In this document: positions 22,384 to 45,291 of the stretch, piece after piece
How positions within the stretch are numbered: position 1 is the stretch's first letter
Layout of the letters: every line of letters starts with the position of its first letter
NCBI GenBank assembly: GCA_049642725.1
Contig: JBARPC010000005.1
Location: 1 to 47,507, forward strand
Source of the DNA: Minisyncoccales bacterium
GTDB taxonomy: Bacteria > Patescibacteriota > Minisyncoccia > Minisyncoccales > JAGMDC01
Length of the DNA stretch: 47,507 nucleotides
Direction: 5' to 3'
Notes under the pieces: model-generated
The model's database searches: none
Seen by the model: only the letters and a program-made list of their open reading frames with translations
What the model was told of the DNA's origin: nothing
Made by a program: the position numbers and the translations under genes

Positions 22384-22385
22384 CT

Positions 22386-25114: not shown

Positions 25115-25133
25115 AAATTAATATAAGACAATT

Positions 25134-25538: not shown

Positions 25539-25599
25539 AAGAAAAAATTAAGTAAGAAAGAATTAATAAAAATAATTAAAGAATTTATATTTTATAAAC

Positions 25600-26925: not shown

Positions 26926-26950
26926 GCCGAAATTAAGATAATATTTAAAA

Positions 26951-27136: not shown

Positions 27137-27281
27137 TAAGGAGGGATTAGAGGAAGCGAAAAATAATCTGTTGGGATTTTTTGATTTACTTCTCAAAATC
27201 GATAGAAGAATAAATCCTCAAAGATATAAATTAAAAAGGAAGAAGATTTAATTAAATTAATTTTTTTGGGAAAATAGTAAT

Positions 27282-28598: not shown

Positions 28599-28602
28599 AA
28601 TG

Positions 28603-28857
28603 AGACAATAGAATATATCCTTAAGTAGTGTCTCACTCTCATTTCTCGAACAGAACACCTAAACTGAGACACAGGGGTGAGACATTCCCGAAAGCTTCAA
28701 AACGGGACACTCAACTGTTCCATTGGAACACCCCCTTTTCGTGTTCCGTTTGTTCCGTTTTAGCTTCAAAATGCCCGACCGAGACGGGTCAATGGAACAC
28801 GCCGAAAATAGCCTGAATTACCCTTAAAATCTCGGTTCTGGACCGAGGTTGTCTGCC
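28603..28857 (+). ncRNA. Structured repeat element with tRNA-like 3' end (candidate tRNA-like RNA or MITE)
   Basis: 5' agacaat (28603-28609) can pair with 3' gttgtct (28847-28853), followed by g+CCA. T-arm-like ctcgg-ttctgga-ccgag. An internal palindrome gttccaTtggaac and a gttccgttt x2 direct repeat are present. A partial homologue lies at 46698-46876. Confidence 0.4.
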
Positions 28858-28886
28858 ATCACATGCTAAGTCAAGTGACTGAGACG
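28858..28886 (+). repeat. 29-nt trailer tcacatgctaagtcaagtgactgagacgc, copy 2
   Basis: Same motif as 4263-4291 and again placed immediately after a ...tgcca end. Confidence 0.7.
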
Positions 28887-28917
28887 CCTTAATTCGAGTC
28901 ACAAGGGGGAATAGGAT

Positions 28918-28941
28918 GGTGCTCGGTTCGAGCGACCGAGA
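28918..28941 (+). repeat. 24-bp direct repeat gtgctcggttcgagcgaccgagac, right copy
   Basis: Matches 10718-10741. It is followed by a T-run (ggtttattttt), so it may also act as a terminator. Confidence 0.7.
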
Positions 28942-29076
28942 CAGGTTTATTTTTACAATTCTAGTCTAAATTGCGGTCGCTGATCGAAAATAAAAACGGC
29001 TGAGTTTAGCCGTTTTTAAGACTCAGAAGAATAGTTTTTATTTTTTAATTCAAGATTATATATTTATACCTTAGCG

Positions 29077-29164
29077 AATCAAGGTTCTGCCGAGCGTCAG
29101 CGAGGCAGGTTCTTAATTACAAAGTAATCAAGGTTCTGCTGAGCGTCAGCGAGGCAGGTTCTTA
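29077..29164. repeat. Tandem direct repeat (2 x 39 bp, 49-bp period) duplicating the 3' end of the XRE gene
   Basis: aatcaaggttctgcYgagcgtcagcgaggcaggttctta appears twice. The reverse complement encodes ...KNLPR*, the C-terminus of gene 29146..29529. Confidence 0.8.
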
Positions 29165-29529
29165 TATTTTTTATCAACGATTTCTTTAGCCATTTCTATG
29201 TCGCGGATAGCTTGAGGCGAAAGATGATATTTTGCCCGGAGATATTGCGGAAGATCAGGAAGCTCATACTCGTCACTATCAACTAAGCCGGCTTCTTTCA
29301 AGAGAGCTCCTACTGGTATGTTATAAAATTTTGAAAGTTTCAATAGGGTATGAATATTGATAGTGAAAAAAGAATTGCCGTTTTCAATTTTGAAAAGATA
29401 ACTGGGAGCTATTCTAGATTTTTCAGCTACTTCCCTGATTGATAGTTCAGATTCTTTTCTCAATTGTTTAAGATAGGTTCCTAATTTTTTCATTTCGTAA
29501 GGAATTGTTTTTTTCAAAGTTTTTAGCAT
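29146..29529 (-). CDS. XRE-family HTH transcriptional regulator
   Basis: LRKESELSIREVAEKSRIAPSYLFKIENG matches an HTH_3 domain. Confidence 0.7.
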   Translation of the reverse strand: MLKTLKKTIPYEMKKLGTYLKQLRKESELSIREVAEKSRIAPSYLFKIENGNSFFTINIHTLLKLSKFYNIPVGALLKEAGLVDSDEYELPDLPQYLRAKYHLSPQAIRDIEMAKEIVDKKYKNLPR

Positions 29530-30319: not shown

Positions 30320-30526
30320 ATGGCTGTAGAAAAAGCAATAGGTAGCTCTAGTTTAGTGGAGGTAGTAGACCGAATTCTTGACAAGGGTGTTGTTATTGAC
30401 GCTTGGGTAAGAGTTTCATTAGTTGGTATTGAATTGCTGGCAATTGAAGCCAGAGTGGTAGTTGCTTCGGTTGAAACTTGGTTGAAATATGCAGAAGCTG
30501 TCGGTCTTACTGCCACCGCTGCCTAA
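30320..30526 (+). CDS. gvpA: Gas vesicle structural protein GvpA
   Basis: 68 aa, [53 protein letters not shown], the hallmark GvpA sequence. Confidence 0.9.
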
Positions 30527-30698
30527 GAGCTAAGCTAAATTGTTTAAAGCATCCTTTATGTTCGGAGGAGTACCCGAATTCCTTCTCCAAATCCTTAAAA
30601 AGGGTTAAGAGTAGAAAGTATGCCTTAAACAATATTTTGAATATCAAAATTTGTTCTTGAAAAAAAAGAGTAAATTCTGGTATTTAAATTTAAGAGTT

Positions 30699-31241
30699 AT
30701 GTCTAATAATAATTTCAAAATTGCTCAAGACATCGTCGCTTCATACGAAGCTCGGATAAAGGTAATTCAGGCAACAGCTGAAGACACCCAAAAATTGCTT
30801 GAAGAATTTAGGGAAAAGAGAGAAAAGATGAGCCAGGAATTAAAAGGAGCTTTATCCCAACATGAATCTTTGAGAAAGAAAGATTTTGACAAAATGATGG
30901 AAGATATTTTAATTGCTCAAAAAACTCGAGAAGAAAATGTAAAACAAATGCTAGTTGATTTTCAAGATGAGGAAATGAAAGTTGTTGAGGGTTTAAGAGA
31001 AATGCTCAAAAAAGGAGAAAAATTAAGGCTCAAAGATTTTAAGGGTACTTTGGTTAAAATTAGAGAAGAACAAGAAATTCGAGAAAAAAAAACCCCCACT
31101 CGTATTGGCGAAGAATTAATTCGGATGAAATCAGAAGTTTGTGAGATGCTTGAAAATTTTAAGAGAGAGCGGGAAAAAGTGGCTTCGGAATGGAAAGAGA
31201 TGACGACCTCAGTGAATCAAAAACGAAATTTAAATAAATAA
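30699..31241 (+). CDS. Coiled-coil gas-vesicle-associated protein (paralogue of 31708..32226; alternative start at 30651)
   Basis: Charged heptad-rich sequence sharing RKKDFDKMMEDI / LKDFKGTLVKI motifs with the downstream paralogue. Confidence 0.5.
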   Translation: MSNNNFKIAQDIVASYEARIKVIQATAEDTQKLLEEFREKREKMSQELKGALSQHESLRKKDFDKMMEDILIAQKTREENVKQMLVDFQDEEMKVVEGLREMLKKGEKLRLKDFKGTLVKIREEQEIREKKTPTRIGEELIRMKSEVCEMLENFKREREKVASEWKEMTTSVNQKRNLNK

Positions 31242-31295
31242 TTAACCCGCCAAAATTTTGCATCGCAAAACTTAGGCGGGTAAAGGTCAAAAACT

Positions 31296-31601
31296 ATGGC
31301 AAAAAAAGCATCAATTAAATACAAGATGATCACCTGTGCTTTCTGTAAAGGAAAAGGAATAGATCCTTTTGGAATTCCTTCAAAGTTGTCTAATTGCCAA
31401 GTGTGTTGGGGTAAAGGCAAAGTAGCCATTGCTGATATTCCTCATGAGACCTGCGGAGCTTGCGAGGGTTCAGGAATTTTTGAACATCATCGATTGCCTT
31501 GTTCGGTCTGCAAGGGGAAAGGAGTGGTTCCGAAAGACAGGAGGCAGGGATCGAAAGGAATGAATCCGGGCACGGGATTACCGGAAATCGGGAACTACTA
31601 A
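31296..31601 (+). CDS. DnaJ-type zinc-finger (CR-domain) protein
   Basis: Four CxxCxGxG repeats: CAFCKGKG, CQVCWGKG, CGACEGSG and CSVCKGKG. Confidence 0.6.
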   Translation: MAKKASIKYKMITCAFCKGKGIDPFGIPSKLSNCQVCWGKGKVAIADIPHETCGACEGSGIFEHHRLPCSVCKGKGVVPKDRRQGSKGMNPGTGLPEIGNY

Positions 31602-31707
31602 AAAAGTCGAAACTTAACATAAAATTAATTAAATTTTTGATTTTTAATTAATCTAATGTCTCATTAATTTTAGTCATTAGAATTAATTATTAGTCATTGT
31701 GAATAAT

Positions 31708-32226
31708 ATGGCTTACGCACAAGAAATGAAAAATTTAGCGGCCGAAATCAAAACCTCTCATCAAGACCGAACTCAATATATAGCGGACGTTAAAGATGCT
31801 ACTCATGAATTGATTGCTAAATTTCAAGGAGAATTGAAAGAAATGGCTAGAGATCTGAAAGATTTTCTGGCAAAAAGTGAAGATACAAGAAAGAAAGATT
31901 TTGATGGAATGATGAAAGGGATTCAAGTAAAGATTAAGGAAATTCAAGGCGATGTAAAAGATTTCTTAGCCGAAAGTGAAGAAAAAAGAATGGCCGATTT
32001 TAAAGTCACAATGAAAGATATTACTGATAGAGTTGATGATATAAAGAAAACCGCAAGGGGAATGCTTGGCAACTATAAAACAGAGAGAAAAGAGGCAGCT
32101 GGTTATTGGGGAAGATTGAAAGGCAAAGAGGCTGCAGTAGTCAAAGAAGCGGTAGTTGAAGAAGCGGTAGCTGAAGAAGCGGAAGAAGAAGCGCCAAAAA
32201 GAAAAAAAGGAAGAAGGAAGAAATAA
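31708..32226 (+). CDS. Coiled-coil gas-vesicle-associated protein with basic C-terminal tail (alternative GTG start at 31699)
   Basis: RKKDFDGMMKGI and VKDFLAESEEKRMADFK motifs are paralogous to 30699..31241. The sequence ends in an EEAEEEAPKRKKGRRKK tail. Confidence 0.5.
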   Translation: MAYAQEMKNLAAEIKTSHQDRTQYIADVKDATHELIAKFQGELKEMARDLKDFLAKSEDTRKKDFDGMMKGIQVKIKEIQGDVKDFLAESEEKRMADFKVTMKDITDRVDDIKKTARGMLGNYKTERKEAAGYWGRLKGKEAAVVKEAVVEEAVAEEAEEEAPKRKKGRRKK

Positions 32227-32306
32227 TTCGTATCCGAAGCCGCAAATTCGTAAATTCGTACAACGGTTTCGGTAAAAAGGTCGAATTTAATTTATATTCT
32301 AGTAAA

Positions 32307-33245
32307 TTGAGAGATATGCCTTATTTATCATCAGAAGAAGAACAAGCTATTATTGAGCCAAAACCAATGGCTGATTTTGTTGAGACACCTTACATTAAGC
32401 GATTGACTCGCCGAGCTTTGAATTATCTCAAAGTTGGAATTCCAGTCCATTTTAGGGGTCCGACTGGAACCGGTAAAACCACTTTAGCTTTACATGTAGC
32501 AAGCAAAATTGGAAGACCGGCAGTCCTTTTGCATGGAGACGACGAATATAAAACTTCTGATTTAGTGGGAGGCGAACACGGTTATCGTTACCGCTATTTA
32601 AAAGACAATTTTATTTCCAGCGTTCTTAAGGTAGAGCAAGATATGTATAAGCGCTGGACGGACAACCGCTTAACATTAGCCTGTAAAAATGGTTTCACCA
32701 TGATTTATGATGAATTTACTCGTTCAAAACCAGAAGCCAATAATATTTTACTCTCCATTTTACAAGAAAAAGTGATGGACTTGCCGGCCCAAAGACAGGG
32801 AGAGGAAGCTCATTATTTGCAAGTTCATCCCAATTTCTGCGCTGTTTTTACCTCTAATCCCGAAGAGTACGCTGGCACTCATAAAGCCCAAGATGCTTTG
32901 AGAGATAGAATGGTTACTATGGACCTGGATTATTTTGACCGAAAAACCGAAGTAGCAATAACTCAAACAAAATCTGGCCTTTCTGAAGAAGATTCCGGGA
33001 AAATAGTTAATGTGGTCAGAGGAATGAGAACGCACAATCCCTGCGAATTTCCTCCTACTGTAAGAAGCTGCATTACTTTAGCTAAGGCTGTAGTAATTAA
33101 TAGAGGAAAGGTTTCGGTTGCCGATTCCGTTTTTCGAGAATTGGCTCAAGATGTATTAGTTTCTCAAACTACTCGAAGCCCTTGGTCACCAAAACGAAAA
33201 GAGATAAAAGAATTGGTTGAAGGATTAATTAATAAATATTGCTAA
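32307..33245 (+). CDS. gvpN: Gas vesicle AAA+ ATPase GvpN (MoxR/CbbQ-like)
   Basis: Walker A GPTGTGKTTLALHVA, Walker B MIYDEFTRSKPE, and the position after gvpA. Confidence 0.8.
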   Translation: MRDMPYLSSEEEQAIIEPKPMADFVETPYIKRLTRRALNYLKVGIPVHFRGPTGTGKTTLALHVASKIGRPAVLLHGDDEYKTSDLVGGEHGYRYRYLKDNFISSVLKVEQDMYKRWTDNRLTLACKNGFTMIYDEFTRSKPEANNILLSILQEKVMDLPAQRQGEEAHYLQVHPNFCAVFTSNPEEYAGTHKAQDALRDRMVTMDLDYFDRKTEVAITQTKSGLSEEDSGKIVNVVRGMRTHNPCEFPPTVRSCITLAKAVVINRGKVSVADSVFRELAQDVLVSQTTRSPWSPKRKEIKELVEGLINKYC

Positions 33246-33248
33246 AAT

Positions 33249-33593
33249 ATGAAAACTTCAATAAAAACACTTCAAGATGTTAGTGGCTTCCACGATCTTA
33301 GAACATATACTGGAGCAGTTAGGAAAAGCGGCAAGCCAGCGCTTCCCACCACGAATATCCTAGATCTTTATATGCGAAGGAATGAAAGAGATAGGTTGGT
33401 CAAGGAATTAAAACTGGTGAAAAGAAGAAGGGTGCAGTTGCGCGGAAGATTAAAAGACGTAGAGAAGGAGATGACGAAACTTCTCGTTAAGGCTACCAAA
33501 ACAGCAGTAGACATAAGAGGAGAAACGATAAGGGGCGGCTTAAGTTCAATTGAGGAATCGAAAAAGAAAGGAAAAATGGTATTAGGATATTAA
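33249..33593 (+). CDS. Basic, coiled hypothetical protein
   Basis: 114-aa ORF. Confidence 0.4.
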   Translation: MKTSIKTLQDVSGFHDLRTYTGAVRKSGKPALPTTNILDLYMRRNERDRLVKELKLVKRRRVQLRGRLKDVEKEMTKLLVKATKTAVDIRGETIRGGLSSIEESKKKGKMVLGY

Positions 33594-33628
33594 ATTCTAA
33601 TAATTTGTGTTTAAGTTAGTGAATATTT

Positions 33629-33943
33629 ATGGGCATTATGACTACGAACGAGCTAAGAGTTTTATCTATTATTTGGGATTGGGGAGGAGAAGCATCGGTT
33701 GATATTATTGCCAGAGAAGTTGGTATTAGCATTGATTATGCAAGGCTTTTATGTGAAAGTTTGGGAAGAGAAGGCTGTATAGATTTTTTGGGCTCCAAAC
33801 TCTGCAAAATAAAAAGTAAAGGAAAGGTAATGGTAGCAAGTAAAAAGGGCCAGAATCCCCAAAAAATTGTTATCCCAGAAAGGCCGAGCAGATTCGGCTT
33901 AGGCAAAGATAAAAGAGGAAGAATTATTTTAAATTATGGTTAA
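33629..33943 (+). CDS. Winged-helix DNA-binding protein (putative regulator; paralogue of 37263..37709)
   Basis: LRVLSIIWDWGGEASVDIIAREVGISIDYARLLCESLGREGCIDF. Confidence 0.45.
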   Translation: MGIMTTNELRVLSIIWDWGGEASVDIIAREVGISIDYARLLCESLGREGCIDFLGSKLCKIKSKGKVMVASKKGQNPQKIVIPERPSRFGLGKDKRGRIILNYG

Positions 33944-34544
33944 AAAATATAAATTTAAAAAAACTGAAAAGGGAAAAACCGATCAGGCTAGAGAAGAATT
34001 GAAAAATCTGGAAGATTTGCCTTTGGTCGGTGGACTTCTCAAAGGATTGGGAAAATTCGTTGATCTGGCAGAAAGAGTAGAAGAAGCCGGAGGAGAGATT
34101 AAAAAGAAAGGAGAGATAAAAAGCGATGAGGGAAAGGTAAGGGGTATTTATGGATTTTCGATAAAAAGCGGAATCGGGGAGAGGCCGAAATTTCAAACTT
34201 TTGGCAATATAAAACCAATTAAAAAAGAAGCTAAAGCAAAACCGGAATTTAAAATCACGGAGACCAGAGAACCGATGGTGGATGTTTTTAATGAGAAAGA
34301 CCATGTTTTGATTGTAGCTGAGCTTCCTGGAGTAAGCGAAGACAGTATCAACTTGGATCTAAAAGGAGATATTTTGATCTTAGAAGCTGGAGATGAAAAA
34401 AGAAAGTATTCAAAAGAAATTTTGCTTCCCCGTTCGACTTCGCCTGGACGAAGTCCTGGCGGGCGGGCAGCGAAAGTTGATTTTGACGGGAGAGAAGAAA
34501 ACTTTAAGAATGGAGTACTTGAAGTAAAGATGAGAAAAATATGA
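33936..34544 (+). CDS. Hsp20/alpha-crystallin small heat-shock protein (GvpH-like position)
   Basis: [28 protein letters not shown]...ILLP...[12 protein letters not shown] matches an alpha-crystallin domain. Confidence 0.7.
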
Positions 34545-36697
34545 CAGCTATTTTCAAAATAGCAGAAGCAGAATCAAAAGATGTAGGGAGGGCTATTGTC
34601 CGAATTGACCCAAAAGATCTTTCCAAAGTTAAAGCTGAAATTGGAGATATAGTGGAAGTTAAAAGTGCCAAGGAAAAAGTTAAGAAAAAAACAGTAGCTA
34701 AATTGATGCCGGCTTTCGAAGAAATGCGCGGCAAGGGAATCTTACAAATGGATGGAATTTTAAGGGATAATATTAAGGTTGGTTTAAACGAGAAGATAAA
34801 GATTAAAAAGATAGAGACGAACCTCGCTTCAACTATAGTTTTAAAACCTTTAACTTCGGAAAGCTCTTTAAAAGAGACCGATTCAGAATACTTAGCTCAA
34901 ATATTGGATGGGGCACCAGTTATTACAGAGAATAAAATCCGGGCAACCTTTTTCGGATCAAAATTTCAAGACTTTTTAGTGGAAGATACTGATCCCGACG
35001 GGGCAGTTTTGATAAATTCCGAAACAACAATCAAAATTAAGGGGGCTGCCAAAGCAAAAAGAGGAGTAGGGATTACTTACGAGGATATTGGCGGCCTTAA
35101 AAAAGAAATGGGGAAAATTAGAGAAATGATTGAGCTTCCCTTGAAATATCCTGAGGTTTTTGAAAGATTAGGAATTGATGCTCCAAAGGGAGTATTGCTT
35201 CATGGTCCTCCGGGCTGCGGAAAAACTTTAATTGCCAGAGCTATTGCCAATGAAACTGACGCTTATTTTACCCATATTTCGGGACCGGAAATAATGGGTA
35301 AGTTTTATGGGGAATCCGAAGGAAGATTAAGAGAAGTATTTGAAACAGCCGAATCTAATGCTCCAGCTATTTTAGCAATAGATGAAATTGATGCTATTGC
35401 CCCTAAACGTGAAGATATGGGGGGAGAAAAACAGGTAGAAAGAAGAGTAGTGGCTCAACTTTTGGCTTTAATGGACGGATTAGAATCTCGAGGAGATTTA
35501 ATTGTAATCGGAATTACCAATATTCCTAATACTTTAGATCCTGCCTTAAGAAGACCGGGAAGATTTGATCGAGAAATTTCAATTCCTATTCCTGATAAAA
35601 ACGGCAGAAAAGAAATATTAGAAATTCATACCCGGGGAATGCCTCTAACTAAGAACTTTGATTTAGAGAAACTGGCTGAGATTACTCACGGTTTTGTAGG
35701 AGCAGATTTGGAGGCCCTAGCCAGAGAAGCGGCGATGTCGGCCCTGAGAGAGATTATGCCAGAGATTGAATTTGAAAAAGAATATATTCCTTATAAAAAA
35801 CTTTTGGGCATTGAAGTAACCATGGATCATTTCCGAGAGGCACTGAAAGAAGTTGAACCCTCGGCTTTAAGAGAAGTATTTACTGAGATTCCTAATGTCA
35901 GGTGGGAAGATGTCGGAGGGTTAGAGGACATAAAACAGACCCTCAAAGAAGCTATTGAATGGCCATTAAAATACGGAAAGCTCTTTGATCATTCAAAAAC
36001 CAGTCCCCCTAAAGGAATATTGCTTTCAGGGCCTCCGGGTACCGGAAAAACTTTAATAGCTAAAGCAGTAGCTTCTGAATGCGGAGTCAATTTTATTTCA
36101 GTTAAGGGCCCCCAACTTTTATCCCGTTGGGTTGGAGAAAGCGAAAAGGGAGTAAGAGAAGTTTTCAAAAAAGCAAAGCAATCCTCTCCCTGTATTGTCT
36201 TTTTTGATGAAATCGACAGTTTGGTTCCGGCTCGAAACCAATCTTCAGATTCCCATGTAACAGAACGGGTGGTTAGCCAATTTCTTACCGAACTTGACGG
36301 CATAGAAGAGCTTAAAGGAGTAGTAATTCTAGGAGCAACTAATCGATTGAATTTAATTGATTCTGCTTTACTGAGAGCCGGAAGATTCGATTTTCTCTTG
36401 GAAGTTCCAAAACCCGATGAAAAAACTAGGCTGAAAATATTCAAAATTCATACTCAAGGCAAGCCCTTGGCTCAAGATGTAGATTTTAAAATCCTAGGTA
36501 GGGAAACAGAGGGGCTTACCGGAGCTGATATTGAAACCATTTGTAAAAAAGCATCCATAATGGCAATTAGAGAGTTTGTGAATTCAAGCAACCCCAAAGG
36601 AAAGCTTTCGGCTTCCTACGTGGCAGGCCAAAACGAGAAAAATTTTAAAATTAAATTTAAATATTTTAAAGAAGCATTAAAGAATTTAAAGACATAA
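34541..36697 (+). CDS. Cdc48/VCP-like double-ring AAA+ ATPase
   Basis: N-domain plus D1 ([22 protein letters not shown]) and D2 ([22 protein letters not shown]), with second-region-of-homology motifs. Confidence 0.85.
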
Positions 36698-36698
36698 T

Positions 36699-37211
36699 AT
36701 GCCCAATATAGAAGATCTAAAGCAAGCACAACAGCAATTAAACCCCCACACCAAACGAGGACAAATCGCTGAAAGCGATTCAGTTGGAGAAGCCAGTCCT
36801 CGTTCTGGTGTGGGGGTAAAGGAAAGCGAGCAAGACCCAAAAGACACTAAAAATTTTCCCAGAAGAACTTCTCCTCCCTTCACTGTTTCCAGAGCTGTTA
36901 GCGAAGTGCCTGACGTTTCTCTAAACAAGAAGGAAATTCAAGGACAGGAGGAGAAGAGTTGGGTTTCTCCCCAAGAATGGCAAAAAGAAATCTTAAATGA
37001 AAAGCAAAAACTTGAAAAGGCGTCTAAGGAAATAGAAAATTGGCAGGCAAAAATTCAAGAACGGCTTGGGATAATAAAAAAATTAGAATCTCAAAGCGAA
37101 AAAATAGATGAAGCGGTAGGGGAACTTCAGCAGAAAATAGTTTTAGTAAAAAAAGAAAATAATACTTTCTTGTATCAAATAAGAACCTCTCGCTTCGCTC
37201 GAGAACCTTGA
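36699..37211 (+). CDS. Coiled-coil hypothetical protein
   Basis: 170-aa ORF with a coiled C-terminal half. Confidence 0.45.
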   Translation: MPNIEDLKQAQQQLNPHTKRGQIAESDSVGEASPRSGVGVKESEQDPKDTKNFPRRTSPPFTVSRAVSEVPDVSLNKKEIQGQEEKSWVSPQEWQKEILNEKQKLEKASKEIENWQAKIQERLGIIKKLESQSEKIDEAVGELQQKIVLVKKENNTFLYQIRTSRFAREP

Positions 37212-37262
37212 TTCCTGCCGGCACTAATGTATAAACATATAATTTTGAATTAAAAAACAATA

Positions 37263-37709
37263 TTGAACATGGAAACCGAGTTGGAAATTTTAAAGAAGAT
37301 TCTGAAAAATAAAAAATCTGCTTACGTTCGATTGATTTCTGTTCAAACTGGCCTTGGCGCAGATTATGTTCGATATATTTGTAAAAATTTACAAAGAAAA
37401 AATTTAATAAAAAAGCAGGGGAGAGATGAATATTCAATAAACCACGCAGGAGAAAAGGAATTGGAAAAAAGGGGATTAATTAAAACAAAAGGGATTTTCC
37501 AAAGTTCACAAACTGGTTGTCCAGCTTTTGCAAAATTAGCTCTGTGGAAACCAAAGGAAATTAAAGTTGGAACAACTCCTGTTGTTAGAGCTAAAATTGA
37601 AAAAAAATTGAATTTTCCTGAATTAAAAGAAGAAAAGTTAACCATTGGTAAAAAGGTCGAAAAAGCAGTATCATTTCTTAAAAAATTAAAAGGAAAGGAG
37701 GGATTCTAA
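37263..37709 (+). CDS. Winged-helix DNA-binding protein (putative regulator)
   Basis: LEILKKILKNKKSAYVRLISVQTGLGADYVRYICKNLQRKNLIKK is paralogous to 33629..33943. Confidence 0.45.
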   Translation: MNMETELEILKKILKNKKSAYVRLISVQTGLGADYVRYICKNLQRKNLIKKQGRDEYSINHAGEKELEKRGLIKTKGIFQSSQTGCPAFAKLALWKPKEIKVGTTPVVRAKIEKKLNFPELKEEKLTIGKKVEKAVSFLKKLKGKEGF

Positions 37710-37717
37710 AAAGGATT

Positions 37718-38761
37718 ATGAAAAAAGGAAAGAAGAAAATTAAACAATCGCAAGCTATGCCATCTCAAATTGGAAGAGGTTTAGATGTAGGGACTACTTT
37801 CATCTATTCAGCCCAGAAAATGGGTTCGGAAGTGAAATTTAATACTGAGCGAAACGCGTTCTTTGATATTGAGCGAAATGATTTCGTTGAAAACATATTA
37901 AAAAAATCCAATGTAAAATGCGCCCTAAAGGGAGATAAACTCTGTGTGATAGGAGAAAATGCGCTAAAATTTGCCAATGTTTTTGGCAAAGAAACGAGAC
38001 GTTCTTTAAAAAGCGGAGTAATTAGTCCCCAAGAAGAGGATGCTTTACCGATTCTAAATCTAATTATTGAAAATACTTTAGGTCCCCATCGCCATAAGGG
38101 CGAAACTATCTTTTATTCAGTTCCGGGCGCTCCGGTAGACGCTGATTTCAATGTAATTTACCATGAACAGATTTTAAGAAGAATGCTTCAGAATTTGGGA
38201 TATGAGCCAAAATCTATCAATGAGGGATTAGCAGTGATTTATTCTGAATTGGCTAATAATGATTTTACAGGGATGGGAATTTCTTTCGGCGGAGGAATGG
38301 CTAATGTTTGCCTGGCAGTAATGTCTATTCCAGTGTTTTCTTTCAGTATAGCCAAAGCAGGTGATTGGATAGATGCAGAAGTTGCGCGAGTAAGTAATGA
38401 AACTGGAAGCAAAATTACCGCAATTAAAGAATCCAGATTAGACCTTACGAAACCGGAAAATAGCTTAACTAAAATAGAGCAAGCTCTTTCTATTTATTAC
38501 AATCATTTAATCGAATATGTATTGAGTTGTGTTAAAAATGAAATTGAAAAGCAAAACAAAATGCCTTTATTAGAAAGCCCTATTTCTATTGTTATTTCTG
38601 GAGGAACAGCCAAGCCCAAAGGATTTTTAGAAAGATTTAAGACAGCCCTAAATAAAACTAATCTCCCCTTAAAAATCGGAGAAGTGAAACTGGCTTCCCA
38701 TCCTCTCCACACTGTAGCCAAAGGCGCGCTAATCGCAGCAATTGCTGATAAGGGAAAATGA
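37718..38761 (+). CDS. Actin-like ATPase (ASKHA fold; ParM/MamK/Hsp70-like)
   Basis: Phosphate-1 GLDVGTTFIY, connect/phosphate-2 GISFGGGMANVCLA, and adenosine VISGGTAK motifs. Confidence 0.55.
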   Translation: MKKGKKKIKQSQAMPSQIGRGLDVGTTFIYSAQKMGSEVKFNTERNAFFDIERNDFVENILKKSNVKCALKGDKLCVIGENALKFANVFGKETRRSLKSGVISPQEEDALPILNLIIENTLGPHRHKGETIFYSVPGAPVDADFNVIYHEQILRRMLQNLGYEPKSINEGLAVIYSELANNDFTGMGISFGGGMANVCLAVMSIPVFSFSIAKAGDWIDAEVARVSNETGSKITAIKESRLDLTKPENSLTKIEQALSIYYNHLIEYVLSCVKNEIEKQNKMPLLESPISIVISGGTAKPKGFLERFKTALNKTNLPLKIGEVKLASHPLHTVAKGALIAAIADKGK

Positions 38762-38765
38762 CATT

Positions 38766-39803
38766 ATGACAGAAGAAGGAAAATATATCTACTCCATAAT
38801 TAAAGAGAACAATGACCGAAGGTTTGATTGTATTGGGATAAATAATCGAGAGGTAAACATTGTTCACTACAAAGACATAGCAGCAGTGGTCTCAAGCAGT
38901 CCAATTATTAACTTTGATCGTTTAAACAAGAAAGAACTAACAAACCATGTTGCTACCCACCAAAGAGTAAATGAAGCAGTGATGAAAGAGTATGATGTTG
39001 TGCCTATGGCATTCGGAATTATTGCTCCCAGCGTCAATGAAGTGATGCGTATTTTAGAAAAAGCCTATCTTCAATTCAAAACAGCCTTTAAAAATATAAC
39101 CGGTAAAGCAGAATTTGCGGTTCAAGTATGGTGGAATCCAAAAAAACTTCTTGAAGAATTAGCTAACACCAATCCAGAAATCCGGAAATTAAAACAAACG
39201 GTGGTTTTGAAAGGAAGTATTTTAGGAATGCCAATGAAGTTGAAATTAGGAAAGTTAATACAAAAAGAAGCAGAAATTCAAAGACAAACTTTTATTAATG
39301 ATATTCATAAATCCCTAAGAAACTTATCCCTTGCTTCCACATCGAATAAATTAATTGATGATGAGATGATAGCCAACCTCTCTTTCTTAATAGAAAAAGC
39401 TAAAGAACTCGAGCTTGATAGAAAGATGCAAGAACTCGGAAAAAAATATGAGGGGAAATTAAAATTTAAATATATTGGGCCGATGCCTCCTTACAGTTTT
39501 GTAAGAATAAATTTAAACTTAGGCAATTTTGAAGTAGTTAATAGGGCAAGAAAACTTTTAGGATTAGAAGAAATAGCCACTCTTGATGAAATTAAAAAGG
39601 CTTATTATGTCCTTGCCCATCAATATCATCCGGATAAACATCAGGGTGACCCCCAAAAAGAAGAACAAATGAAAAAAATAGCCCAAGCCCATAGTATTTT
39701 GGAGAATTACTGCCAGAGTTATGATGATTTTGAAGGAAAAACCGAAGACCAAAAATATTCTTTTAAAGAAGGAGATGTTAAGGCCGCAATATTGATTCGT
39801 TAA
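38766..39803 (+). CDS. GvpF/L-family protein with a C-terminal J-domain
   Basis: N-terminal KYIYSIIKEN...VNIVHYKDIAAVVSS matches GvpF/L. C-terminal LDEIKKAYYVLAHQYHPDKHQGDPQKEEQMKKIAQAHSIL carries the HPD motif. Confidence 0.7.
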   Translation: MTEEGKYIYSIIKENNDRRFDCIGINNREVNIVHYKDIAAVVSSSPIINFDRLNKKELTNHVATHQRVNEAVMKEYDVVPMAFGIIAPSVNEVMRILEKAYLQFKTAFKNITGKAEFAVQVWWNPKKLLEELANTNPEIRKLKQTVVLKGSILGMPMKLKLGKLIQKEAEIQRQTFINDIHKSLRNLSLASTSNKLIDDEMIANLSFLIEKAKELELDRKMQELGKKYEGKLKFKYIGPMPPYSFVRINLNLGNFEVVNRARKLLGLEEIATLDEIKKAYYVLAHQYHPDKHQGDPQKEEQMKKIAQAHSILENYCQSYDDFEGKTEDQKYSFKEGDVKAAILIR

Positions 39804-39877
39804 TAACTCCCTTTTAATGAGGGGGGCATTAAAGGTCGAAGCATAAAATAAAAACCAAAATTAAAAAACAAAAAACT

Positions 39878-40216
39878 ATGTCAGAAATTATTACTTTATT
39901 CCAAACTCTGTATATTCAAGTTATTACGCTAATGATACTGATTGATATCCTTTTGGGAATTACTGCCGCGGTTGTCAAAAAAGATTTTCTTTTTGCGAAG
40001 TTAGCTGATTTTATGAAAGGCCCGGTAATAGCCTATATTTTAGGTTTTGCTGTTTTAGGAATGGTGGCTCCAGTATTGCCAATGATAGGCACTATTGCCT
40101 TGGGACCATTAGTTCTTAAGTTTGCCTTTGTTTTGATTGTCTTGACTTTATTGGCTTCCATTTTTAGGAATTTAAAGAAACTGGGATTACCGTTGCCAGG
40201 AATTCTGGAAAAATAA
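39878..40216 (+). CDS. Small multi-TM membrane protein
   Basis: 112 aa with three predicted TM helices. Confidence 0.45.
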   Translation: MSEIITLFQTLYIQVITLMILIDILLGITAAVVKKDFLFAKLADFMKGPVIAYILGFAVLGMVAPVLPMIGTIALGPLVLKFAFVLIVLTLLASIFRNLKKLGLPLPGILEK

Positions 40217-40221
40217 GTATT

Positions 40222-40256
40222 GGACGTGTGGCGTCCGAATTGGACGTCGCACGTCC
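40222..40256. promoter_or_regulatory. Two tandem 15-bp palindromes (GGACGTGTGGCGTCC and GGACGTCGCACGTCC)
   Basis: Located directly upstream of the ATG at 40265. Confidence 0.4.
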
Positions 40257-40264
40257 ATAAGATT

Positions 40265-41029
40265 ATGATCGAAGCTCAAGGAAAATATCTTTATTGCGTT
40301 ATTAAAGAAAAGAGTCCTAAGAAATTTAATATTTTGGGGCAGGAGGGAAAAGAAGTTTATACAATTAATGAAAGGGATTTGGCAATTGCGGTGAGCGATA
40401 CATTAAAAACAGAATATTCGTTTATCAAAGAACACTTGACAGGGCATCAAAGAGTTATTGAAGAGGTGATGAAGGAAGGATACGATGTTTTACCGGTTCG
40501 TTTTGGAACAATAGCAAAGACAGCCGAAGACGTCAGAGAAAAAATATTAAAATCAAAAAGAAAAGAACTTTTAGAAACATTTCCAAAAGTGGAAGGTAGA
40601 GTAGAATTGGGTTTAAGGGCTTATTGGAAAGATATGCCGGGTATTTTTCAAGAAATAGTTAAAGAAAACCCTGAAATTCAAACAGCAAAAAAAGAAGCTC
40701 AGAAAAACCCATTCCAAATGAAAGTTGCTAGTGTAGGAGAAATAGTCCAAAAAGCGCTTGATGCCAAAAGAGAAAGAGAAGCTGAAAAGATACTTAATCC
40801 TTTAAAGAAATTAGCGGTAGATTTTAAAGAAAGAGAATTTCTGAGATCAAGCGATGTTATGAAAGATTCAATGATTTTAAGCAGTGCTTTTCTGGTATCA
40901 AAAGATAATGAGAAAGAATTTGATAAAAGAGTAGAGTCCTTTACCAAAAAATATGGGGAGAGAATGAAATTTATTTACATGGGTCCTATTCCTCCTTTTA
41001 ATTTCGTAGAATTGGTTTTAAACATATGA
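40265..41029 (+). CDS. GvpF/L-family gas vesicle protein
   Basis: MIEAQGKYLYCVIKE...VYTINERDLAIAVSD. The track ORF begins at 40220 but that stretch is palindromic. Confidence 0.7.
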   Translation: MIEAQGKYLYCVIKEKSPKKFNILGQEGKEVYTINERDLAIAVSDTLKTEYSFIKEHLTGHQRVIEEVMKEGYDVLPVRFGTIAKTAEDVREKILKSKRKELLETFPKVEGRVELGLRAYWKDMPGIFQEIVKENPEIQTAKKEAQKNPFQMKVASVGEIVQKALDAKREREAEKILNPLKKLAVDFKEREFLRSSDVMKDSMILSSAFLVSKDNEKEFDKRVESFTKKYGERMKFIYMGPIPPFNFVELVLNI

Positions 41030-42975
41030 CAAATCAATTCCTCATCAACCCTAAATTGAATTTTATTATTTTTGGAGGAAAGGGCGGCAGCGGAAAAACA
41101 ACTTCAGCCTGCGCGACTGCCCTGCATTTAAGCCAAAAACAGGGAGATAAAAAGATTTTAGTGGTTTCTACTGATCCAGCCCCTTCAGTAGGCGATAGTT
41201 TCGATGTAGAAGTCGGCAATAAAATTACTCACATCAAAGACAATGTCTGGGCTCAAGAATTGGATGCCAAAGAATTAATGGAAGATTTTCGGAAAAAAAA
41301 TTTAGAGACCATTAAGACATTAGCAGATAGAGGGACTTATCTTTCAAGAGTTGATATAGAAGAATTTTCTTCTCTTTCTCTGCCGGGAATGGATGAGATG
41401 ATGGCTGTTATAAAAATTGCGAATCTTTTGAAAACTGAAAAATATGACTTAATTATTCTTGATACCGCGCCTACCGGCCATACTAAAGCGCTTCTATCAT
41501 TACCTAAAAAAATGAAAACATGGTTGAGGGTAGCAGATTTAATGCTCGCAAAACATCGATTTATGATGAGGAGAATAAGAGGAAAGTATGTAAAAGATGA
41601 ATGCGATAAATTTTTAGAAGAAAGCAGGGCTGATATAGAAAGAGTAGAGGAACTTTTAAAAAATTCTGAAAATACTGAATTTGTTCCGGTAACTATTCCT
41701 GAACCAATGAGTATATTAGAAACAGAGGATTTGGTTGATGATTTGAAAGAAATGGACATTTCTGTGAAAAGTATAATCTGCAATCGGGTAATGGTTCCAG
41801 ACAAATGTGTATTTTGCAGATTAAGAGTCAAAGAAAAAGAAAAGCACATTAAGTTGATTGAGGAGAAATTTAGCCATTACAATCTTTTTAAAATACCTCT
41901 TTTTCCTTCAGAAGTTAGGGGCAATAGCTCTTTACAAGAATATGGCAGGGTTTTATTTGGCGAAAAGAAATTTGAGATTGCTCTTCCGAGAATTTTACCG
42001 AAATTTCCAGAAATTCCCCAGGGCAGAATGGCTGATTTTCTGAAAAAAGATTTAAATTTTGTTATTTGCGGAGGAAAGGGAGGGGTGGGAAAAACCTCGG
42101 TAGCGGCAGCTACTGCCATATCTTTCGCCAAGAAGTATAAGGATAAAAAAATTCTTATTACCACCACTGATCCGGCTCACGCTTTAAGTAATATCTTTGC
42201 CCAAGAGATTCCTTTCGGAGAAAAAGCAGTTCCAATTCAAGGAATAAAAAATTTAGATGGATTAGAAATAGATGCTCAAAAATTACTTCAAGATTTTAAA
42301 GAAGAATATAAAAAAGATATCCAAGGAGTATTTGAAAAATTTTTTACTGGAGGCGTGGATGTAGCTTTTGACCGAAGAGTAATGGAAGAATTATTGGATT
42401 TTTCTCCGCCAGGATTAGAAGAAATAATGGCTTTGGGAAAAATCACCGATTTGATGAAGGAGGGTAAATATGATATTTATGTTTTAGATTCAGCCGCTTC
42501 TGGACACTTGCTTCGATTTTTAGAACTTCCTGGCTTAATAAGGAAATGGCTTAAAAGCATCTTTAAAATACTTCTTAAATATAAAAATATAACTAGGGCC
42601 GTAGAAATTAAAATTCGACTTCTGGAATTATCTAAAAATATTAGGAAAATTCAAGAAACATTATTTGGATCTAAAAATACGGAGTTTATAATGCTCAGTA
42701 TTGCCGAAGAAATGGGAGTAAGAGAAATGGGGGATTTAGGCAAATGTTTAGAAAAGTTGAATGTCAATTTCAATTATATTGTTATGAATTACATAAATCC
42801 TTCTTCTCGCTCCTGCAGATTCTGTTTAGCCAAAAGAAATAATCAAGAAAAATATATTAAATTAGTAAAGAAAAAATATCCTTCAAAAAAACTGATATTA
42901 ATTCCTTTATTGCCGCATGATATTCGAGGAATAGATTCTTTAAATAAGTTTTCAAAAATAATATACGGCATATAA
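41026..42975 (+). CDS. ArsA/GET3-family ATPase, tandem double domain
   Basis: Two deviant Walker A motifs (GGKGGSGKTT and GGKGGVGKTS) plus DTAPTGHT and DSAASGHLLRFLELP. Confidence 0.8.
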   Translation: MTNQFLINPKLNFIIFGGKGGSGKTTSACATALHLSQKQGDKKILVVSTDPAPSVGDSFDVEVGNKITHIKDNVWAQELDAKELMEDFRKKNLETIKTLADRGTYLSRVDIEEFSSLSLPGMDEMMAVIKIANLLKTEKYDLIILDTAPTGHTKALLSLPKKMKTWLRVADLMLAKHRFMMRRIRGKYVKDECDKFLEESRADIERVEELLKNSENTEFVPVTIPEPMSILETEDLVDDLKEMDISVKSIICNRVMVPDKCVFCRLRVKEKEKHIKLIEEKFSHYNLFKIPLFPSEVRGNSSLQEYGRVLFGEKKFEIALPRILPKFPEIPQGRMADFLKKDLNFVICGGKGGVGKTSVAAATAISFAKKYKDKKILITTTDPAHALSNIFAQEIPFGEKAVPIQGIKNLDGLEIDAQKLLQDFKEEYKKDIQGVFEKFFTGGVDVAFDRRVMEELLDFSPPGLEEIMALGKITDLMKEGKYDIYVLDSAASGHLLRFLELPGLIRKWLKSIFKILLKYKNITRAVEIKIRLLELSKNIRKIQETLFGSKNTEFIMLSIAEEMGVREMGDLGKCLEKLNVNFNYIVMNYINPSSRSCRFCLAKRNNQEKYIKLVKKKYPSKKLILIPLLPHDIRGIDSLNKFSKIIYGI

Positions 42976-42979
42976 TTTT

Positions 42980-43249
42980 ATGGCATTTTTAATAGACGAT
43001 ATATTATTAGCTCCAGTTAAAGGTGTTGTTTGGATAGCTGAAAAAGTCCGGGATATTGCCCTGGAAGAGATAGAAGACACCCCGGAAAAACTTCAAAGAG
43101 AACTCCTTGATTTACAAATGGAATTAGAGGTAGAACAAATTACCGAAAAAGAATATCAAAAAAAAGAGAAAGATATTTTAGAAAGATTAGAATCTTTAAA
43201 AGAAGAAGATAAAAGTAAAAAGGTCGACTCAAGAAAATTAAACAAATAA
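42980..43249 (+). CDS. gvpG: Gas vesicle protein GvpG
   Basis: MAFLIDDILLAPVKG...ELLDLQMELE...EKEYQKKEKDILERLESLK matches the GvpG pattern. Confidence 0.6.
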   Translation: MAFLIDDILLAPVKGVVWIAEKVRDIALEEIEDTPEKLQRELLDLQMELEVEQITEKEYQKKEKDILERLESLKEEDKSKKVDSRKLNK

Positions 43250-43260
43250 CAAAAATTATT

Positions 43261-43530
43261 ATGGAGCCAAAAGAACTTATAGAAAGCGCGAAAAAACAAT
43301 TAGCCGATTTAACTGGTTTTAAAGAACCGGCCGGAATTGGATTTAAAAAAGAAAAAGAAGGGTGGGTAGTAACAGTTGAAATTGTTGAAAAAAAATCTAT
43401 TCCCGAAGGAATGGATATTATAGGAACTTATGAGGTTCAAATAGATGCCAAAGGAGACCTGCTTGGTTATGAAAAAACGGCAATGCGGAAAAAAATGGAT
43501 ACTGGGGCCTTTGAGAAAAAAGAAGAGTAA
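43261..43530 (+). CDS. gvpO: Gas vesicle protein GvpO
   Basis: LADLTG...GWVVTVEIVEKKSIPEGMDIIGTYEVQIDAKGDLLGYEKT resembles the haloarchaeal GvpO core. Confidence 0.55.
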   Translation: MEPKELIESAKKQLADLTGFKEPAGIGFKKEKEGWVVTVEIVEKKSIPEGMDIIGTYEVQIDAKGDLLGYEKTAMRKKMDTGAFEKKEE

Positions 43531-43537
43531 AGGTTAA

Positions 43538-44344
43538 TTGTTCAATTTTATGGATAAGGGATTATATCTTTATTGTATTAGACGGAAAAATGACTCTAAA
43601 TTTTCTGGAAAAGGAATTGGAGGAGAGGAGGTTTATGCTATTCCTTATCAGGATTTAGAGGCAGTAGTGAGTGAAGTTTCTTTAGAAGAATTTGGTTCGG
43701 AAGAAATTCAGAGGAAAGCCCAAGAAGATCTCAAATGGATTAAAGAAAAAGCTCAACTTCACGAGCAAGCCGTTGAAGAAGCTATGAAAAGAGGTGATGG
43801 AGTTTTGAGTATAATTCCAATGAAATTTGGTACCATTTTTAAGACCAAAGAAAAACTAGAAGAAACCTTAAAAAAGCATTACAGACAATTTCGGGAAAGT
43901 TTAGAAAGATTGAAAGGAAAGCAAGAATGGGCAGTAAAAGTATATTTAAATCGCAAAGCCTTCGAAGAGGAAGTAAAAAAAGTTAGCAAGGTAGTGCAGG
44001 AAAAGGAAAAAGAAATAGCCCAACTTCCTGAAGGGATTGCCTATTTTATGCAAAAGCAAATAGATGAAGCCGTTTCAAAAGAAGCAGATAAGGCCATTGA
44101 AAATTATACTGAGATTTTTTTTGAAACTCTTAAAAAATATGCAGAGGCAGAGACTAAAGGAAAAATTTTAGAAAAAGAATTGACCGGAAAGTCCTTGTCC
44201 ATGGTTTTAAATGCTATTTTTCTTGTTTCCGAAGAGAAATTAGAAGATTTTATAAAAGAAATTGATAAATTAAATAAAGATTATAAACCCAAAGGTTTTA
44301 ATTTTGAATACGCTGGCCCCTGGCCGCCGTATAACTTCATTTAA
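43538..44344 (+). CDS. GvpF/L-family gas vesicle protein
   Basis: GLYLYCIRRKND...VYAIPYQDLEAVVSEV with a long helical C-terminal half. Confidence 0.7.
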   Translation: MFNFMDKGLYLYCIRRKNDSKFSGKGIGGEEVYAIPYQDLEAVVSEVSLEEFGSEEIQRKAQEDLKWIKEKAQLHEQAVEEAMKRGDGVLSIIPMKFGTIFKTKEKLEETLKKHYRQFRESLERLKGKQEWAVKVYLNRKAFEEEVKKVSKVVQEKEKEIAQLPEGIAYFMQKQIDEAVSKEADKAIENYTEIFFETLKKYAEAETKGKILEKELTGKSLSMVLNAIFLVSEEKLEDFIKEIDKLNKDYKPKGFNFEYAGPWPPYNFI

Positions 44345-44348
44345 AGAT

Positions 44349-44954
44349 ATGAAACATCATTCAATTAAAACTCCAGAGACTGATACAAAAAGCCCCATGG
44401 GAAGAGAGCCGACACTCGAGAAAGTAACCCTCATTGATGCCTTAGACAAGGTTCTTGAAAAAGGAGCAATAATACAGGGAGATGTGGCAATAAGGGTAGC
44501 CGATGTAGACCTTATATATTTAGGATTAAGAGTTCTTTTAACCTCTATTTCCAAAGCTGAAGAAATGTCTGGCAAAAATTGGAGAAGCTTTGGAACCGAT
44601 TATCATCCTAGTCAAGAACCGATTAAAGAAGAGTTGCAATATCTGGCAAAATTAGAACAAGAAATAAGGAAAGCAGAAGCTAATATACCCAAACTTATTG
44701 ATGCTGGAAACCCCAAAAAAGCAGAGCAGGGGATAGCCAAATTAGTCCTAACTCTTGTTGAACTCCTTAGAAGACTAATGGAAAAAGAAGTAGTTCGTCG
44801 AATTTCAAGAGGATCTCTTTCTAATGTAGAAATTCAAAAGCTGGGACTGACCTTTAAAGCCATGGAAAAGAAAATGCAAGAACTAAAAGTAGTTTTTGGG
44901 ATTGAGGATGAGGAGTTAAATCTGGACCTGGGGCCGCTCGGAAATCTAATGTAA
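44349..44954 (+). CDS. GvpA-superfamily protein: GvpJ/M-like core with GvpK-like C-terminal region
   Basis: TLIDALDKVLEKGAIIQGDVAIRVADVDLIYLGLRVLLTSI, then ...KLVLTLVELLRRLMEKEVVRRISRGSLSNVEIQKLG...LNLDLGPLGNLM. I remember the DLGPLG region as a GvpK feature. Confidence 0.6.
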   Translation: MKHHSIKTPETDTKSPMGREPTLEKVTLIDALDKVLEKGAIIQGDVAIRVADVDLIYLGLRVLLTSISKAEEMSGKNWRSFGTDYHPSQEPIKEELQYLAKLEQEIRKAEANIPKLIDAGNPKKAEQGIAKLVLTLVELLRRLMEKEVVRRISRGSLSNVEIQKLGLTFKAMEKKMQELKVVFGIEDEELNLDLGPLGNLM

Positions 44955-44982
44955 TTAAAATAATAAATAATTAATTAAAACT

Positions 44983-45291
44983 ATGGCACAACAAATTGCT
45001 CACGGTATAGAAGCCACAAACTTAGCTGATATTTTGGAACGAGTTTTAGATAAAGGAATTGTTATTGCTGGCGACATTCAGATTAAGCTAGCCGATGTTG
45101 AATTGCTGACCATCAAAATTAGATTATTGATTGCTTCAGTAGATAAAGCCAAAGAAATGGGAATTAATTGGTGGGAGACTGATTCTTATTTGAGTAGCCA
45201 AGCAAGAGAGATAGAGTCAGAAAAGGAAAGAATAAAACTAGAGAAGAAAGTGGAAGAACTCGAGAAAAAGCTGAAACCTAAAGCCGAATAA
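44983..45291 (+). CDS. Small GvpA-superfamily protein (GvpM/S/K-like)
   Basis: LADILERVLDKGIVIAGDIQIKLADVELLTIKIRLLIASV. Confidence 0.6.
   Translation: MAQQIAHGIEATNLADILERVLDKGIVIAGDIQIKLADVELLTIKIRLLIASVDKAKEMGINWWETDSYLSSQAREIESEKERIKLEKKVEELEKKLKPKAE

Follow-up and report, generated by a model that had tools for sequence, protein, structure and literature searches.

A GvpF/L protein with a C-terminal J-domain in a gas-vesicle gene cluster of a Minisyncoccales bacterium, and its probable link to Hsp70

Results and discussion

The fusion gene and its product

We analysed positions 1 to 47,507 of contig JBARPC010000005.1 (assembly GCA_049642725.1) from a Minisyncoccales bacterium of the Patescibacteriota; this whole stretch is called the window below. 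A complete gas-vesicle (gvp) cluster lies on the + strand at 30320..45291. Among its genes, on the same strand as gvpA, N, H, G, O, J/K and two further F/L genes in the 30.3-45.3 kb region, is one whose product joins a GvpF/L domain to a J-domain; it is called FLJ here. The start codon of FLJ, ATG 38766, follows the stop codon of the upstream gene by 4 nt and is preceded at about 9 nt by a Shine-Dalgarno-like AGGGA. The frame runs uninterrupted on the + strand from 38742 or 38766 to 39803, and a frameshift is not required to join the two domains. The original prediction, made from the DNA letters, had described a GvpF/L protein with a C-terminal J-domain and an HPD motif, and had allowed that a frameshift might place the J-domain in a separate open reading frame (ORF). 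The frame is continuous, and the same one-ORF architecture is found in 120 homologues.

A Pfam search of FLJ found GvpL_GvpF and DnaJ as the sole families at E<=0.1. Residues 5-246 match GvpL_GvpF (PF06386; E=1.3e-60, 205.9 bits) over profile positions 1-244 of 245, and residues 263-314 match DnaJ (PF00226; E=5.4e-16, 58.9 bits against a gathering cut-off of 27.8). The peptide YYVLAHQYHPDKHQGDPQ is present in the translation. Against sequences of the PDB, the N-terminal part matched the cyanobacterial GvpF structures 6l5d and 4qsg at about 1e-14, and the C-terminal part matched many solved J-domains, E. coli DnaJ among them. Both halves of the proposed fusion were thus recovered, with nearly the whole PF06386 profile and the GvpF crystal structures matched by the first and a significant DnaJ match by the second, and with HPD at 288-290. 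Compared with E. coli DnaJ, a class A (type I) Hsp40, FLJ has no glycine/phenylalanine-rich (G/F) region, zinc finger, C-terminal domains (CTD I/II) or dimerisation domain, which fits the definition of a class C (type III) J-protein.

The AlphaFold2 model of FLJ, built on the 120 homologues, had a mean predicted local distance difference test score (pLDDT) of 90.6 and a predicted template modelling (TM) score of 0.84. In the J-domain it has helix I at 254-264, helix II at 273-286 and helix III at 296-323, and HPD sits between helices II and III. Strands are modelled at 270-272 and 330-332, and they appear to pair with each other. Foldseek aligned the model with GvpF 6l5d_B (E=8.5e-17, TM score 0.86 normalised to the target) and with GvpF 4qsg (TM score 0.81, likewise to the target). 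It also matched 5nro_B, the DnaJ J-domain bound to DnaK, with a root-mean-square deviation of 1.0 A over 52 columns and 42% identity. FLJ is therefore like the GvpF proteins of Microcystis (4QSG) and Anabaena (6L5D) in its full-length profile match and its two-lobed alpha+beta fold, and differs from them by an additional 95 residues that form the C-terminal J-domain and a tail.

Conservation and distribution of the fusion

The exact FLJ protein is held by NCBI from a Minisyncoccales metagenome-assembled genome (MAG) under the name 'GvpL/GvpF family gas vesicle protein'. Homologues were drawn from NCBI, JGI, ENA and Logan, and both Pfam domains were in one ORF in all 120 of those listed, down to 50% identity. 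The named members among these 120 are Patescibacteria (Doudna-, Parcu-, Berkel-, Falkow- and Portnoybacteria). HPD was invariant in every aligned homologue (120/120), as were the helix-II residues equivalent to E20, I21, R22, Y25 and L28 of E. coli DnaJ. In the tail, C316, Y331, S332, D337, V338 and S341 were invariant or nearly so, and a comparable tail is present in homologues from Chloroflexota, a 'Deltaproteobacteria' MAG and Thiohalocapsa.

When 1.84 billion representatives at 50% identity were searched exhaustively with HMMER, 262 proteins scored E<=1e-30. The GvpF/L domain, the J core and HPD were all kept in 134 of the best 150 representatives. The family is large, with at least 134 clusters at 50% identity, and extends from Patescibacteria to cultured Alphaproteobacteria.

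A scan of GTDB with one genome per species gave 33 loci. One of them is from a single-cell genome (L013), which carries the same architecture independently of MAG assemblies. Full fusions, with a Pfam DnaJ match and HPD, were found in Dehalococcoidales/Chloroflexota MAGs (L020-L022, L024), in the 'Deltaproteobacteria' MAG (L023) and in Xanthobacter agilis (L031); a Rhodothermaceae MAG (L027) is a weaker case. A search with the Xanthobacter protein found the fusion in cultured, classically gas-vacuolate Alphaproteobacteria, namely Ancylobacter aquaticus, A. vacuolatus, A. dichloromethanicus, Xanthobacter spp., Aquabacter spiritensis, Stella vacuolata and Prosthecomicrobium pneumaticum. HPD was kept in 27 of the 29 proteins from this search. 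The fusion also occurs in Thiohalocapsa sp. ML1 (L029, 9818..10789, + strand), where HPD is present and the Pfam DnaJ score of 28.2 bits is barely over the threshold. The fusion of GvpF/L and J-domain is present in at least four phyla. Gvp clusters of the Candidate Phyla Radiation (CPR) type were also seen in MAGs labelled Gammaproteobacteria or Neomarinimicrobiota (L004 and L016 at 58-64% identity, L019 at 42%), which are probably mis-binned or mislabelled CPR contigs.

A neighbour-joining tree of GvpF/L domains, drawn without support values, separated three paralogue clades. Every J-bearing protein fell in one clade, together with a few members that lack the J-domain or HPD, and this suggests a single old fusion followed by occasional loss. 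Since the fusion has been kept across phyla and all J-bearing proteins share one clade, the J-domain seems to have been under long-term selection. The distance to the cyanobacterial GvpF structures also differed between the paralogues of the window: it was smallest for the plain paralogue FL2 (5e-27), intermediate for FLJ (5e-14) and greatest for the plain paralogue FL3. Judged by the clades and these distances, FLJ is a third paralogue and neither 'the' GvpF nor 'the' GvpL.

In a literature search that left out most subscription journals, no paper describing the fusion was found. The fusion is apparently undescribed, and databases carry the architecture as automatic annotation; UniRef, for example, names some of the alphaproteobacterial fusions 'J domain-containing protein'. 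The earlier impression that described gvp clusters lack the fusion agrees with this search, but the fusion is not peculiar to the cluster studied here, being found in several phyla.

The gas-vesicle cluster of the window

The features of the window are collected in Table 1. FLJ resembles known GvpF and GvpL proteins in lying inside a complete gvp cluster (gvpA, N, H, G, O, J, K). It differs from them in that it stands beside a GvpF-like FL2 and a GvpL-like FL3, and in that it follows the gene of a Cdc48-like AAA+ ATPase and is not placed in an F-G-L block. FL2 is the F/L paralogue of the cluster nearest to cyanobacterial GvpF, and FL3 is GvpL-like by its position beside gvpJ/K.

Table 1. Features of the 47,507-nt window, with FLJ and its parts first
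Feature	Position	Strand	Basis or remark
FLJ, GvpF/L + J-domain fusion gene	38766..39803	+	single ORF, 345 aa, stop codon within coordinates
FLJ, GvpF/L domain	38778..39503	+	residues 5-246
FLJ, J-domain	39525..39734	+	residues 254-323
FLJ, HPD tripeptide H288 P289 D290, Hsp70-activating loop	39627..39635	+	translation
FLJ, conserved C-terminal tail (..YCQS..KYSFKEEDVKNSIIIK)	39735..39800	+	strand 330-332, helix 335-342
Large serine recombinase	11950..13269	-	
ParB-N6/N4 methylase	15295..16629	-	
Type ISP restriction-modification enzyme	17652..20729		
PIF1-like helicase	25600..26925		
Small ORF, 127 aa	29146..29529	opposite strand	just upstream of gvpA
gvpA, 68-aa major shell protein, presumed ultimate client	30320..30526	+	cluster start; ORF and sequence
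Coiled-coil protein	30651..31241	+	no confident Pfam family
CxxCxGxG x4 zinc-finger protein, 101 aa	31296..31601	+	Pfam PF00684
Second coiled-coil protein	31699..32226	+	no confident Pfam family
GvpN-type AAA+	32307..	+	
Two proteins without assigned function	33249.., 33629..	+	
GvpH-like protein, small-heat-shock (alpha-crystallin) domain	33936..34544	+	Pfam GvpH, ArsA_HSP20
Cdc48-like double-ring AAA+ ATPase	34541..36697	+	Pfam CDC48_N + two AAA domains, E=5.4e-92
Two proteins without assigned function	36699.., 37263..	+	
Volactin-family actin homologue	37718..38761	+	Pfam PF25216, E=1.7e-89; 4-nt gap to FLJ
Holin_4_1-like small membrane protein	39878..40216	+	
Plain GvpF/L paralogue FL2	40220..41029	+	Pfam 5.4e-60; PDB 4qsg 5.3e-27; separate tree clade
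Tandem ArsA/Get3-like ATPase	41026..42975	+	E=7e-137
GvpG, GvpO	42980.., 43261..	+	
Plain GvpF/L paralogue FL3	43538..44344	+	Pfam 1.9e-62; PDB 6l5d 5e-10; separate tree clade
Single ORF with GvpJ-like and GvpK domains	44304..44954	+	
GvpJ/A-like protein	44983..	+	

Strongly syntenic gvp clusters occur in at least 17 other CPR species genomes, the single-cell genome included, and a small homologous GvpA ORF heads every syntenic locus. No paper on gas vesicles or gvp clusters in CPR bacteria was found in the same literature search.

Several other genes of the cluster are unusual. The zinc-finger gene between gvpA and gvpN is flanked by genes for two coiled-coil proteins of about 175-196 aa. This pair is conserved in CPR and some Dehalococcoidales clusters and occupies the usual position of gvpC, and its products may be GvpC analogues. 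The ArsA/Get3-like ATPase and the holin_4_1-like protein recur in several CPR gvp loci, which hints at a membrane- or tail-anchor-related step not known for gas vesicles. The ORF at 44304..44954 has a GvpJ/M-like 'Gas_vesicle' domain at residues 42-80 and a GvpK domain at residues 136-216. Homologous ORFs of 177-270 aa are carried by CPR loci, and it looks like a conserved GvpJ-GvpK fusion. The TTG annotated as its start lies 41 nt inside the preceding gene, and the true start may be farther downstream.

Outside the cluster, the housekeeping genes KhpA and TrmD lie at 0.1-1.2 kb of the window, and a block of mobile-element and defence-type genes (10808..29529) separates them from the gvp genes. 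The gvp cluster may be part of a genomic island or adjoin one. With a GC content of 0.33-0.39 it stays inside the range of the remaining window (0.26-0.41), and composition therefore gives it no foreign mark.

Conserved neighbours of FLJ

The most conserved neighbour of FLJ is the gene for the Cdc48-like ATPase on its upstream side. It lies directly or one to three genes before FLJ in CPR, Dehalococcoidales, Xanthobacter, Ancylobacter aquaticus and two further metagenomic clusters (L036, L037), and L004 has the pair the other way round. An overlap of 4 nt joins the two genes in L034, L017 and L018, and in the first of these, from Ancylobacter, they occupy 7872..10004 and 10001..11005. The Cdc48-like ATPase is additional to GvpN in clusters of this type, and the literature search found no paper on Cdc48-type ATPases in gvp clusters.

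In CPR and Dehalococcoidales loci, the gene immediately before the Cdc48-like one encodes a GvpH-like or small heat-shock protein (sHsp)-like product. In the window this protein matches Pfam GvpH at 1.4e-5 (25.7 bits against 22) and ArsA_HSP20 at 2e-5. In the Xanthobacter locus (L031) a GvpH-like ORF at 5246 is about 3 kb upstream of the Cdc48-like gene, and at the Ancylobacter locus no GvpH or HSP20 Pfam match was found.

The volactin-family gene is present in nine CPR loci, mostly directly upstream of FLJ, and is absent from non-CPR clusters and from about half of the CPR loci. MamK organises magnetosomes, and by analogy the volactin homologue might position or organise gas vesicles. The volactin family has been described in Haloferax for its part in cell shape, without a link to gas vesicles.

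A PROSITE-style motif scan, which could miss divergent Hsp70s, had a sole match to Hsp70, in a related gvp operon of a Dehalococcoidia MAG (L030). The gene, at 2077..3831 on the + strand, encodes 584 aa (PF00012, E=4e-171) and lies directly upstream of the GvpH-Cdc48 genes.

Proposed function of FLJ

J-domains act through HPD-dependent activation of the Hsp70 ATPase, and class C J-proteins choose their site or client by their other domain. Auxilin and GAK serve clathrin uncoating in this way, and HscB serves the Fe-S scaffold IscU. FLJ is like auxilin/GAK, HscB and DjlA in combining a J-domain with a specialised domain that would target a client or site. It differs from them in that this domain is GvpF/L, for which the literature search found no description in a J-protein. 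In Halobacterium, GvpF has GvpA as a partner and GvpL interacts with all accessory Gvps (PMC7688916), and both GvpF and GvpL bind the GvpA-like GvpM (PMC6107691). In B. megaterium a role as transient chaperone of GvpA2 was recently suggested for GvpF (PMC11445434). The proteins of both organisms are needed for vesicles to form.

Because FLJ is a genuine fusion with an intact and invariant HPD, recruitment of Hsp70 to gas-vesicle proteins is the most reasonable function for it. FLJ probably brings the cellular DnaK/Hsp70 to clients of the GvpA family or to nascent vesicles, as a class C J-protein. Its GvpF/L domain would attach to hydrophobic members of the GvpA family (GvpA/J/M), or to the complex that assembles a nascent vesicle, in the manner of GvpF and GvpL from Halobacterium and B. 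megaterium. The HPD loop would then trigger ATP hydrolysis in the DnaK/Hsp70 of the cell, so that Hsp70 clamps onto clients at this site. Gene order suggests that GvpH as a holdase, the Hsp70-J pair and the Cdc48-like AAA+ unfoldase could cooperate as a built-in proteostasis module. Such a module would keep shell proteins soluble and deliver or release them during assembly, and it might also dissolve mis-assembled or collapsed shell material. The domain architecture, the fold, the invariant HPD, its conservation, the gene order and a related gvp operon with an Hsp70 gene are observed here; which proteins are clients, which Hsp70 is the partner and whether GvpH and Cdc48 cooperate with FLJ we infer.

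The trio resembles the system of sHsp, Hsp70/J-protein and ClpB (Hsp104) in having an sHsp-like GvpH, a double-ring AAA+ protein and a J-domain protein. It differs in that the AAA+ protein is of the Cdc48 type (CDC48_N and two AAA domains) and not ClpB, in that Hsp70 is not encoded in gvp clusters except in the one Dehalococcoidia operon, and in that cooperation within the trio is suggested by gene order.

Several observations weigh against recruitment of Hsp70 by FLJ. The Pfam DnaJ match covers profile positions 4-55 of 63 only, and in the model a family-specific tail, with a strand (330-332) followed by a short helix (335-342), appears to take the place of the canonical helix IV. Helix II of the CPR proteins is less basic than that of E. 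coli DnaJ, with Y and V at the positions equivalent to K26 and R27. No Hsp70 gene was picked up by the motif scan, either in the 47.5 kb of the window or less than 10 kb from any CPR locus. In the MAG that has the Hsp70 gene in its gvp operon, the protein of the fusion clade (L026, 9980..11077) carries a degenerate J-like extension in which HPD has been lost and QRD stands in its place, and this is a poor fit to a simple picture of a J-fusion with a dedicated Hsp70. Less than 10 kb from the Thiohalocapsa fusion there is no further gvp gene; the genes around it encode an OmpA/BON protein and several proteins without a Pfam match. To our knowledge, Halobacterium, Anabaena, B. megaterium and Serratia assemble vesicles without such a fusion. 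As these well-studied systems do so, the J-domain is an add-on and not a universal requirement.

A more far-reaching proposal is that GvpH, the Cdc48-like AAA+, FLJ and Hsp70 form one dedicated ATP-driven machine, which would hold and unfold GvpA-family subunits, pass them on for insertion into the growing shell and re-extract them from collapsed shells. In CPR bacteria it would also recruit the volactin-family actin homologue, perhaps for positioning the vesicles. We put this forward tentatively and consider it less likely than not.

FLJ could serve recycling and not assembly. In that case it would act like auxilin, whose J-domain is also C-terminal to a domain that binds a lattice or client and whose target, as presumed for FLJ, is a protein lattice. 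FLJ would dock on finished, mis-assembled or collapsed GvpA lattices, and Hsp70 and the Cdc48-like unfoldase would strip and re-solubilise GvpA for turnover or re-use. The conserved neighbours, an unfoldase and an sHsp-like GvpH, suit such a role. But the FLJ gene sits amid assembly genes, co-oriented and tightly packed with them, and the GvpF/L proteins that have been characterised act early in assembly. We consider recycling as the sole role unlikely, and assembly and disassembly roles are not mutually exclusive.

The standalone zinc-finger protein

The original prediction had also noted a standalone protein with four CxxCxGxG motifs at 31296..31601 and had taken it for the other half of a split DnaJ. 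The protein is as described: it has the four motifs and scores 36.7 bits against a threshold of 32.7 with Pfam DnaJ_CXXCXGXG (PF00684), and it also matches the Anti-TRAP and BSD2_CRD profiles. All eight Cys are invariant in 37 homologues. Its 61 relatives are all small (96-162 aa), and PF00684 is annotated in 60 of them. The AlphaFold2 model (pLDDT 83.6) gave weak, non-significant Foldseek matches (E 0.12-1.3), and all four were DnaJ zinc fingers (E 0.12-0.5) or Anti-TRAP.

The zinc-finger gene was found in 12 GTDB loci, and two distant homologues, looked up independently, lie in gvp clusters with Cdc48 and FLJ. All 14 of these loci are gvp clusters that also encode the J-fusion, in counts that cover a few dozen loci. 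Clusters with a paralogue that lacks the J-domain (L025, L026, L032) lack the zinc-finger gene too. The protein is specific to gvp clusters, and a functional link with the J-fusion is plausible.

A stronger reading is that the FLJ J-domain and this zinc finger rebuild a type I DnaJ in trans on the vesicle. The Pfam score, the invariant Cys and the co-occurrence just given favour it, and a CxxCxGxG x4 module is indeed present in the cluster as a separate protein. Yet the zinc-finger gene lies at a distance of 7 kb and ten genes from FLJ, and a Pfam scan of 25 cluster and flanking proteins found no G/F region and no CTD I/II, the domain that hosts the zinc finger in a real DnaJ. Xanthobacter, Ancylobacter and the 'Deltaproteobacteria' MAG have the J-fusion without the zinc-finger gene, and the model resembles the zinc fingers of DnaJ only weakly. 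BSD2 and Anti-TRAP are examples of DnaJ-type zinc-finger proteins that function on their own, with no J-domain. We therefore regard the split DnaJ as improbable. A reconstituted type I DnaJ is not supported, and calling the protein its other half was overstated, although it accompanies a J-fusion in all 14 loci. It is at least as likely that the protein acts as a standalone holdase or assembly factor comparable to BSD2, the Rubisco assembly chaperone, which is likewise small, assembly-linked and without a J-domain. It differs from BSD2 and Anti-TRAP in its specificity for gvp clusters, and the structural match is weak.

Other partners of the J-domain

The J-domain might instead have the volactin homologue or the Cdc48-like AAA+ as its target, or be a mere helical docking element. 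The volactin-family gene ends 4 nt before FLJ, and actin shares the ASKHA (acetate and sugar kinases/Hsc70/actin) fold with the Hsp70 nucleotide-binding domain. The lack of Hsp70 genes near the CPR clusters in the motif scan and the non-canonical helix IV could be explained in this way. But HPD, the hallmark of J-domains that activate Hsp70, is strictly invariant, and the related Dehalococcoidia operon encodes a true Hsp70. A volactin-type ATPase as the partner was set aside, as its gene is lacking from many clusters with the J-fusion (about half of those in CPR and every non-CPR locus). We know of no J-domain that acts on an ATPase other than Hsp70, and we give such a partner only a very slim chance. 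That the fusion is an artefact, two genes made to look like one by a frameshift, through chimeric assembly or by an HPD that arose by chance, has practically no probability, being ruled out by the continuous ORF, the Pfam DnaJ match and the same architecture in more than 120 independent sequences, including isolate genomes and the single-cell genome.

Significance

Complete gvp clusters are widespread in ultra-small Patescibacteria, and we found no report of that. A central question of gas-vesicle biology is how the extremely hydrophobic GvpA stays soluble, how it is delivered and inserted, and where the energy comes from. If the ATP-driven machine exists, it would supply an energy-coupled step that has so far been missing from accounts of gas-vesicle assembly, and it would make a bacterial Hsp70-AAA+ partnership with a motor of the Cdc48 type rather than of the ClpB type.

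Proteotoxic stress sets a limit to the heterologous expression of gas vesicles, which is used for acoustic reporter genes (PMC12848028). A cluster with a co-chaperone module of its own might be expressed better, or such modules might explain the failure of some clusters in hosts with a mismatched DnaK. Cultured Ancylobacter and Xanthobacter carry the fusion, so that a role of Hsp70 can be tested directly. FLJ offers a specific point at which a connection of gas-vesicle formation to the general Hsp70 machinery can be put to experiment.

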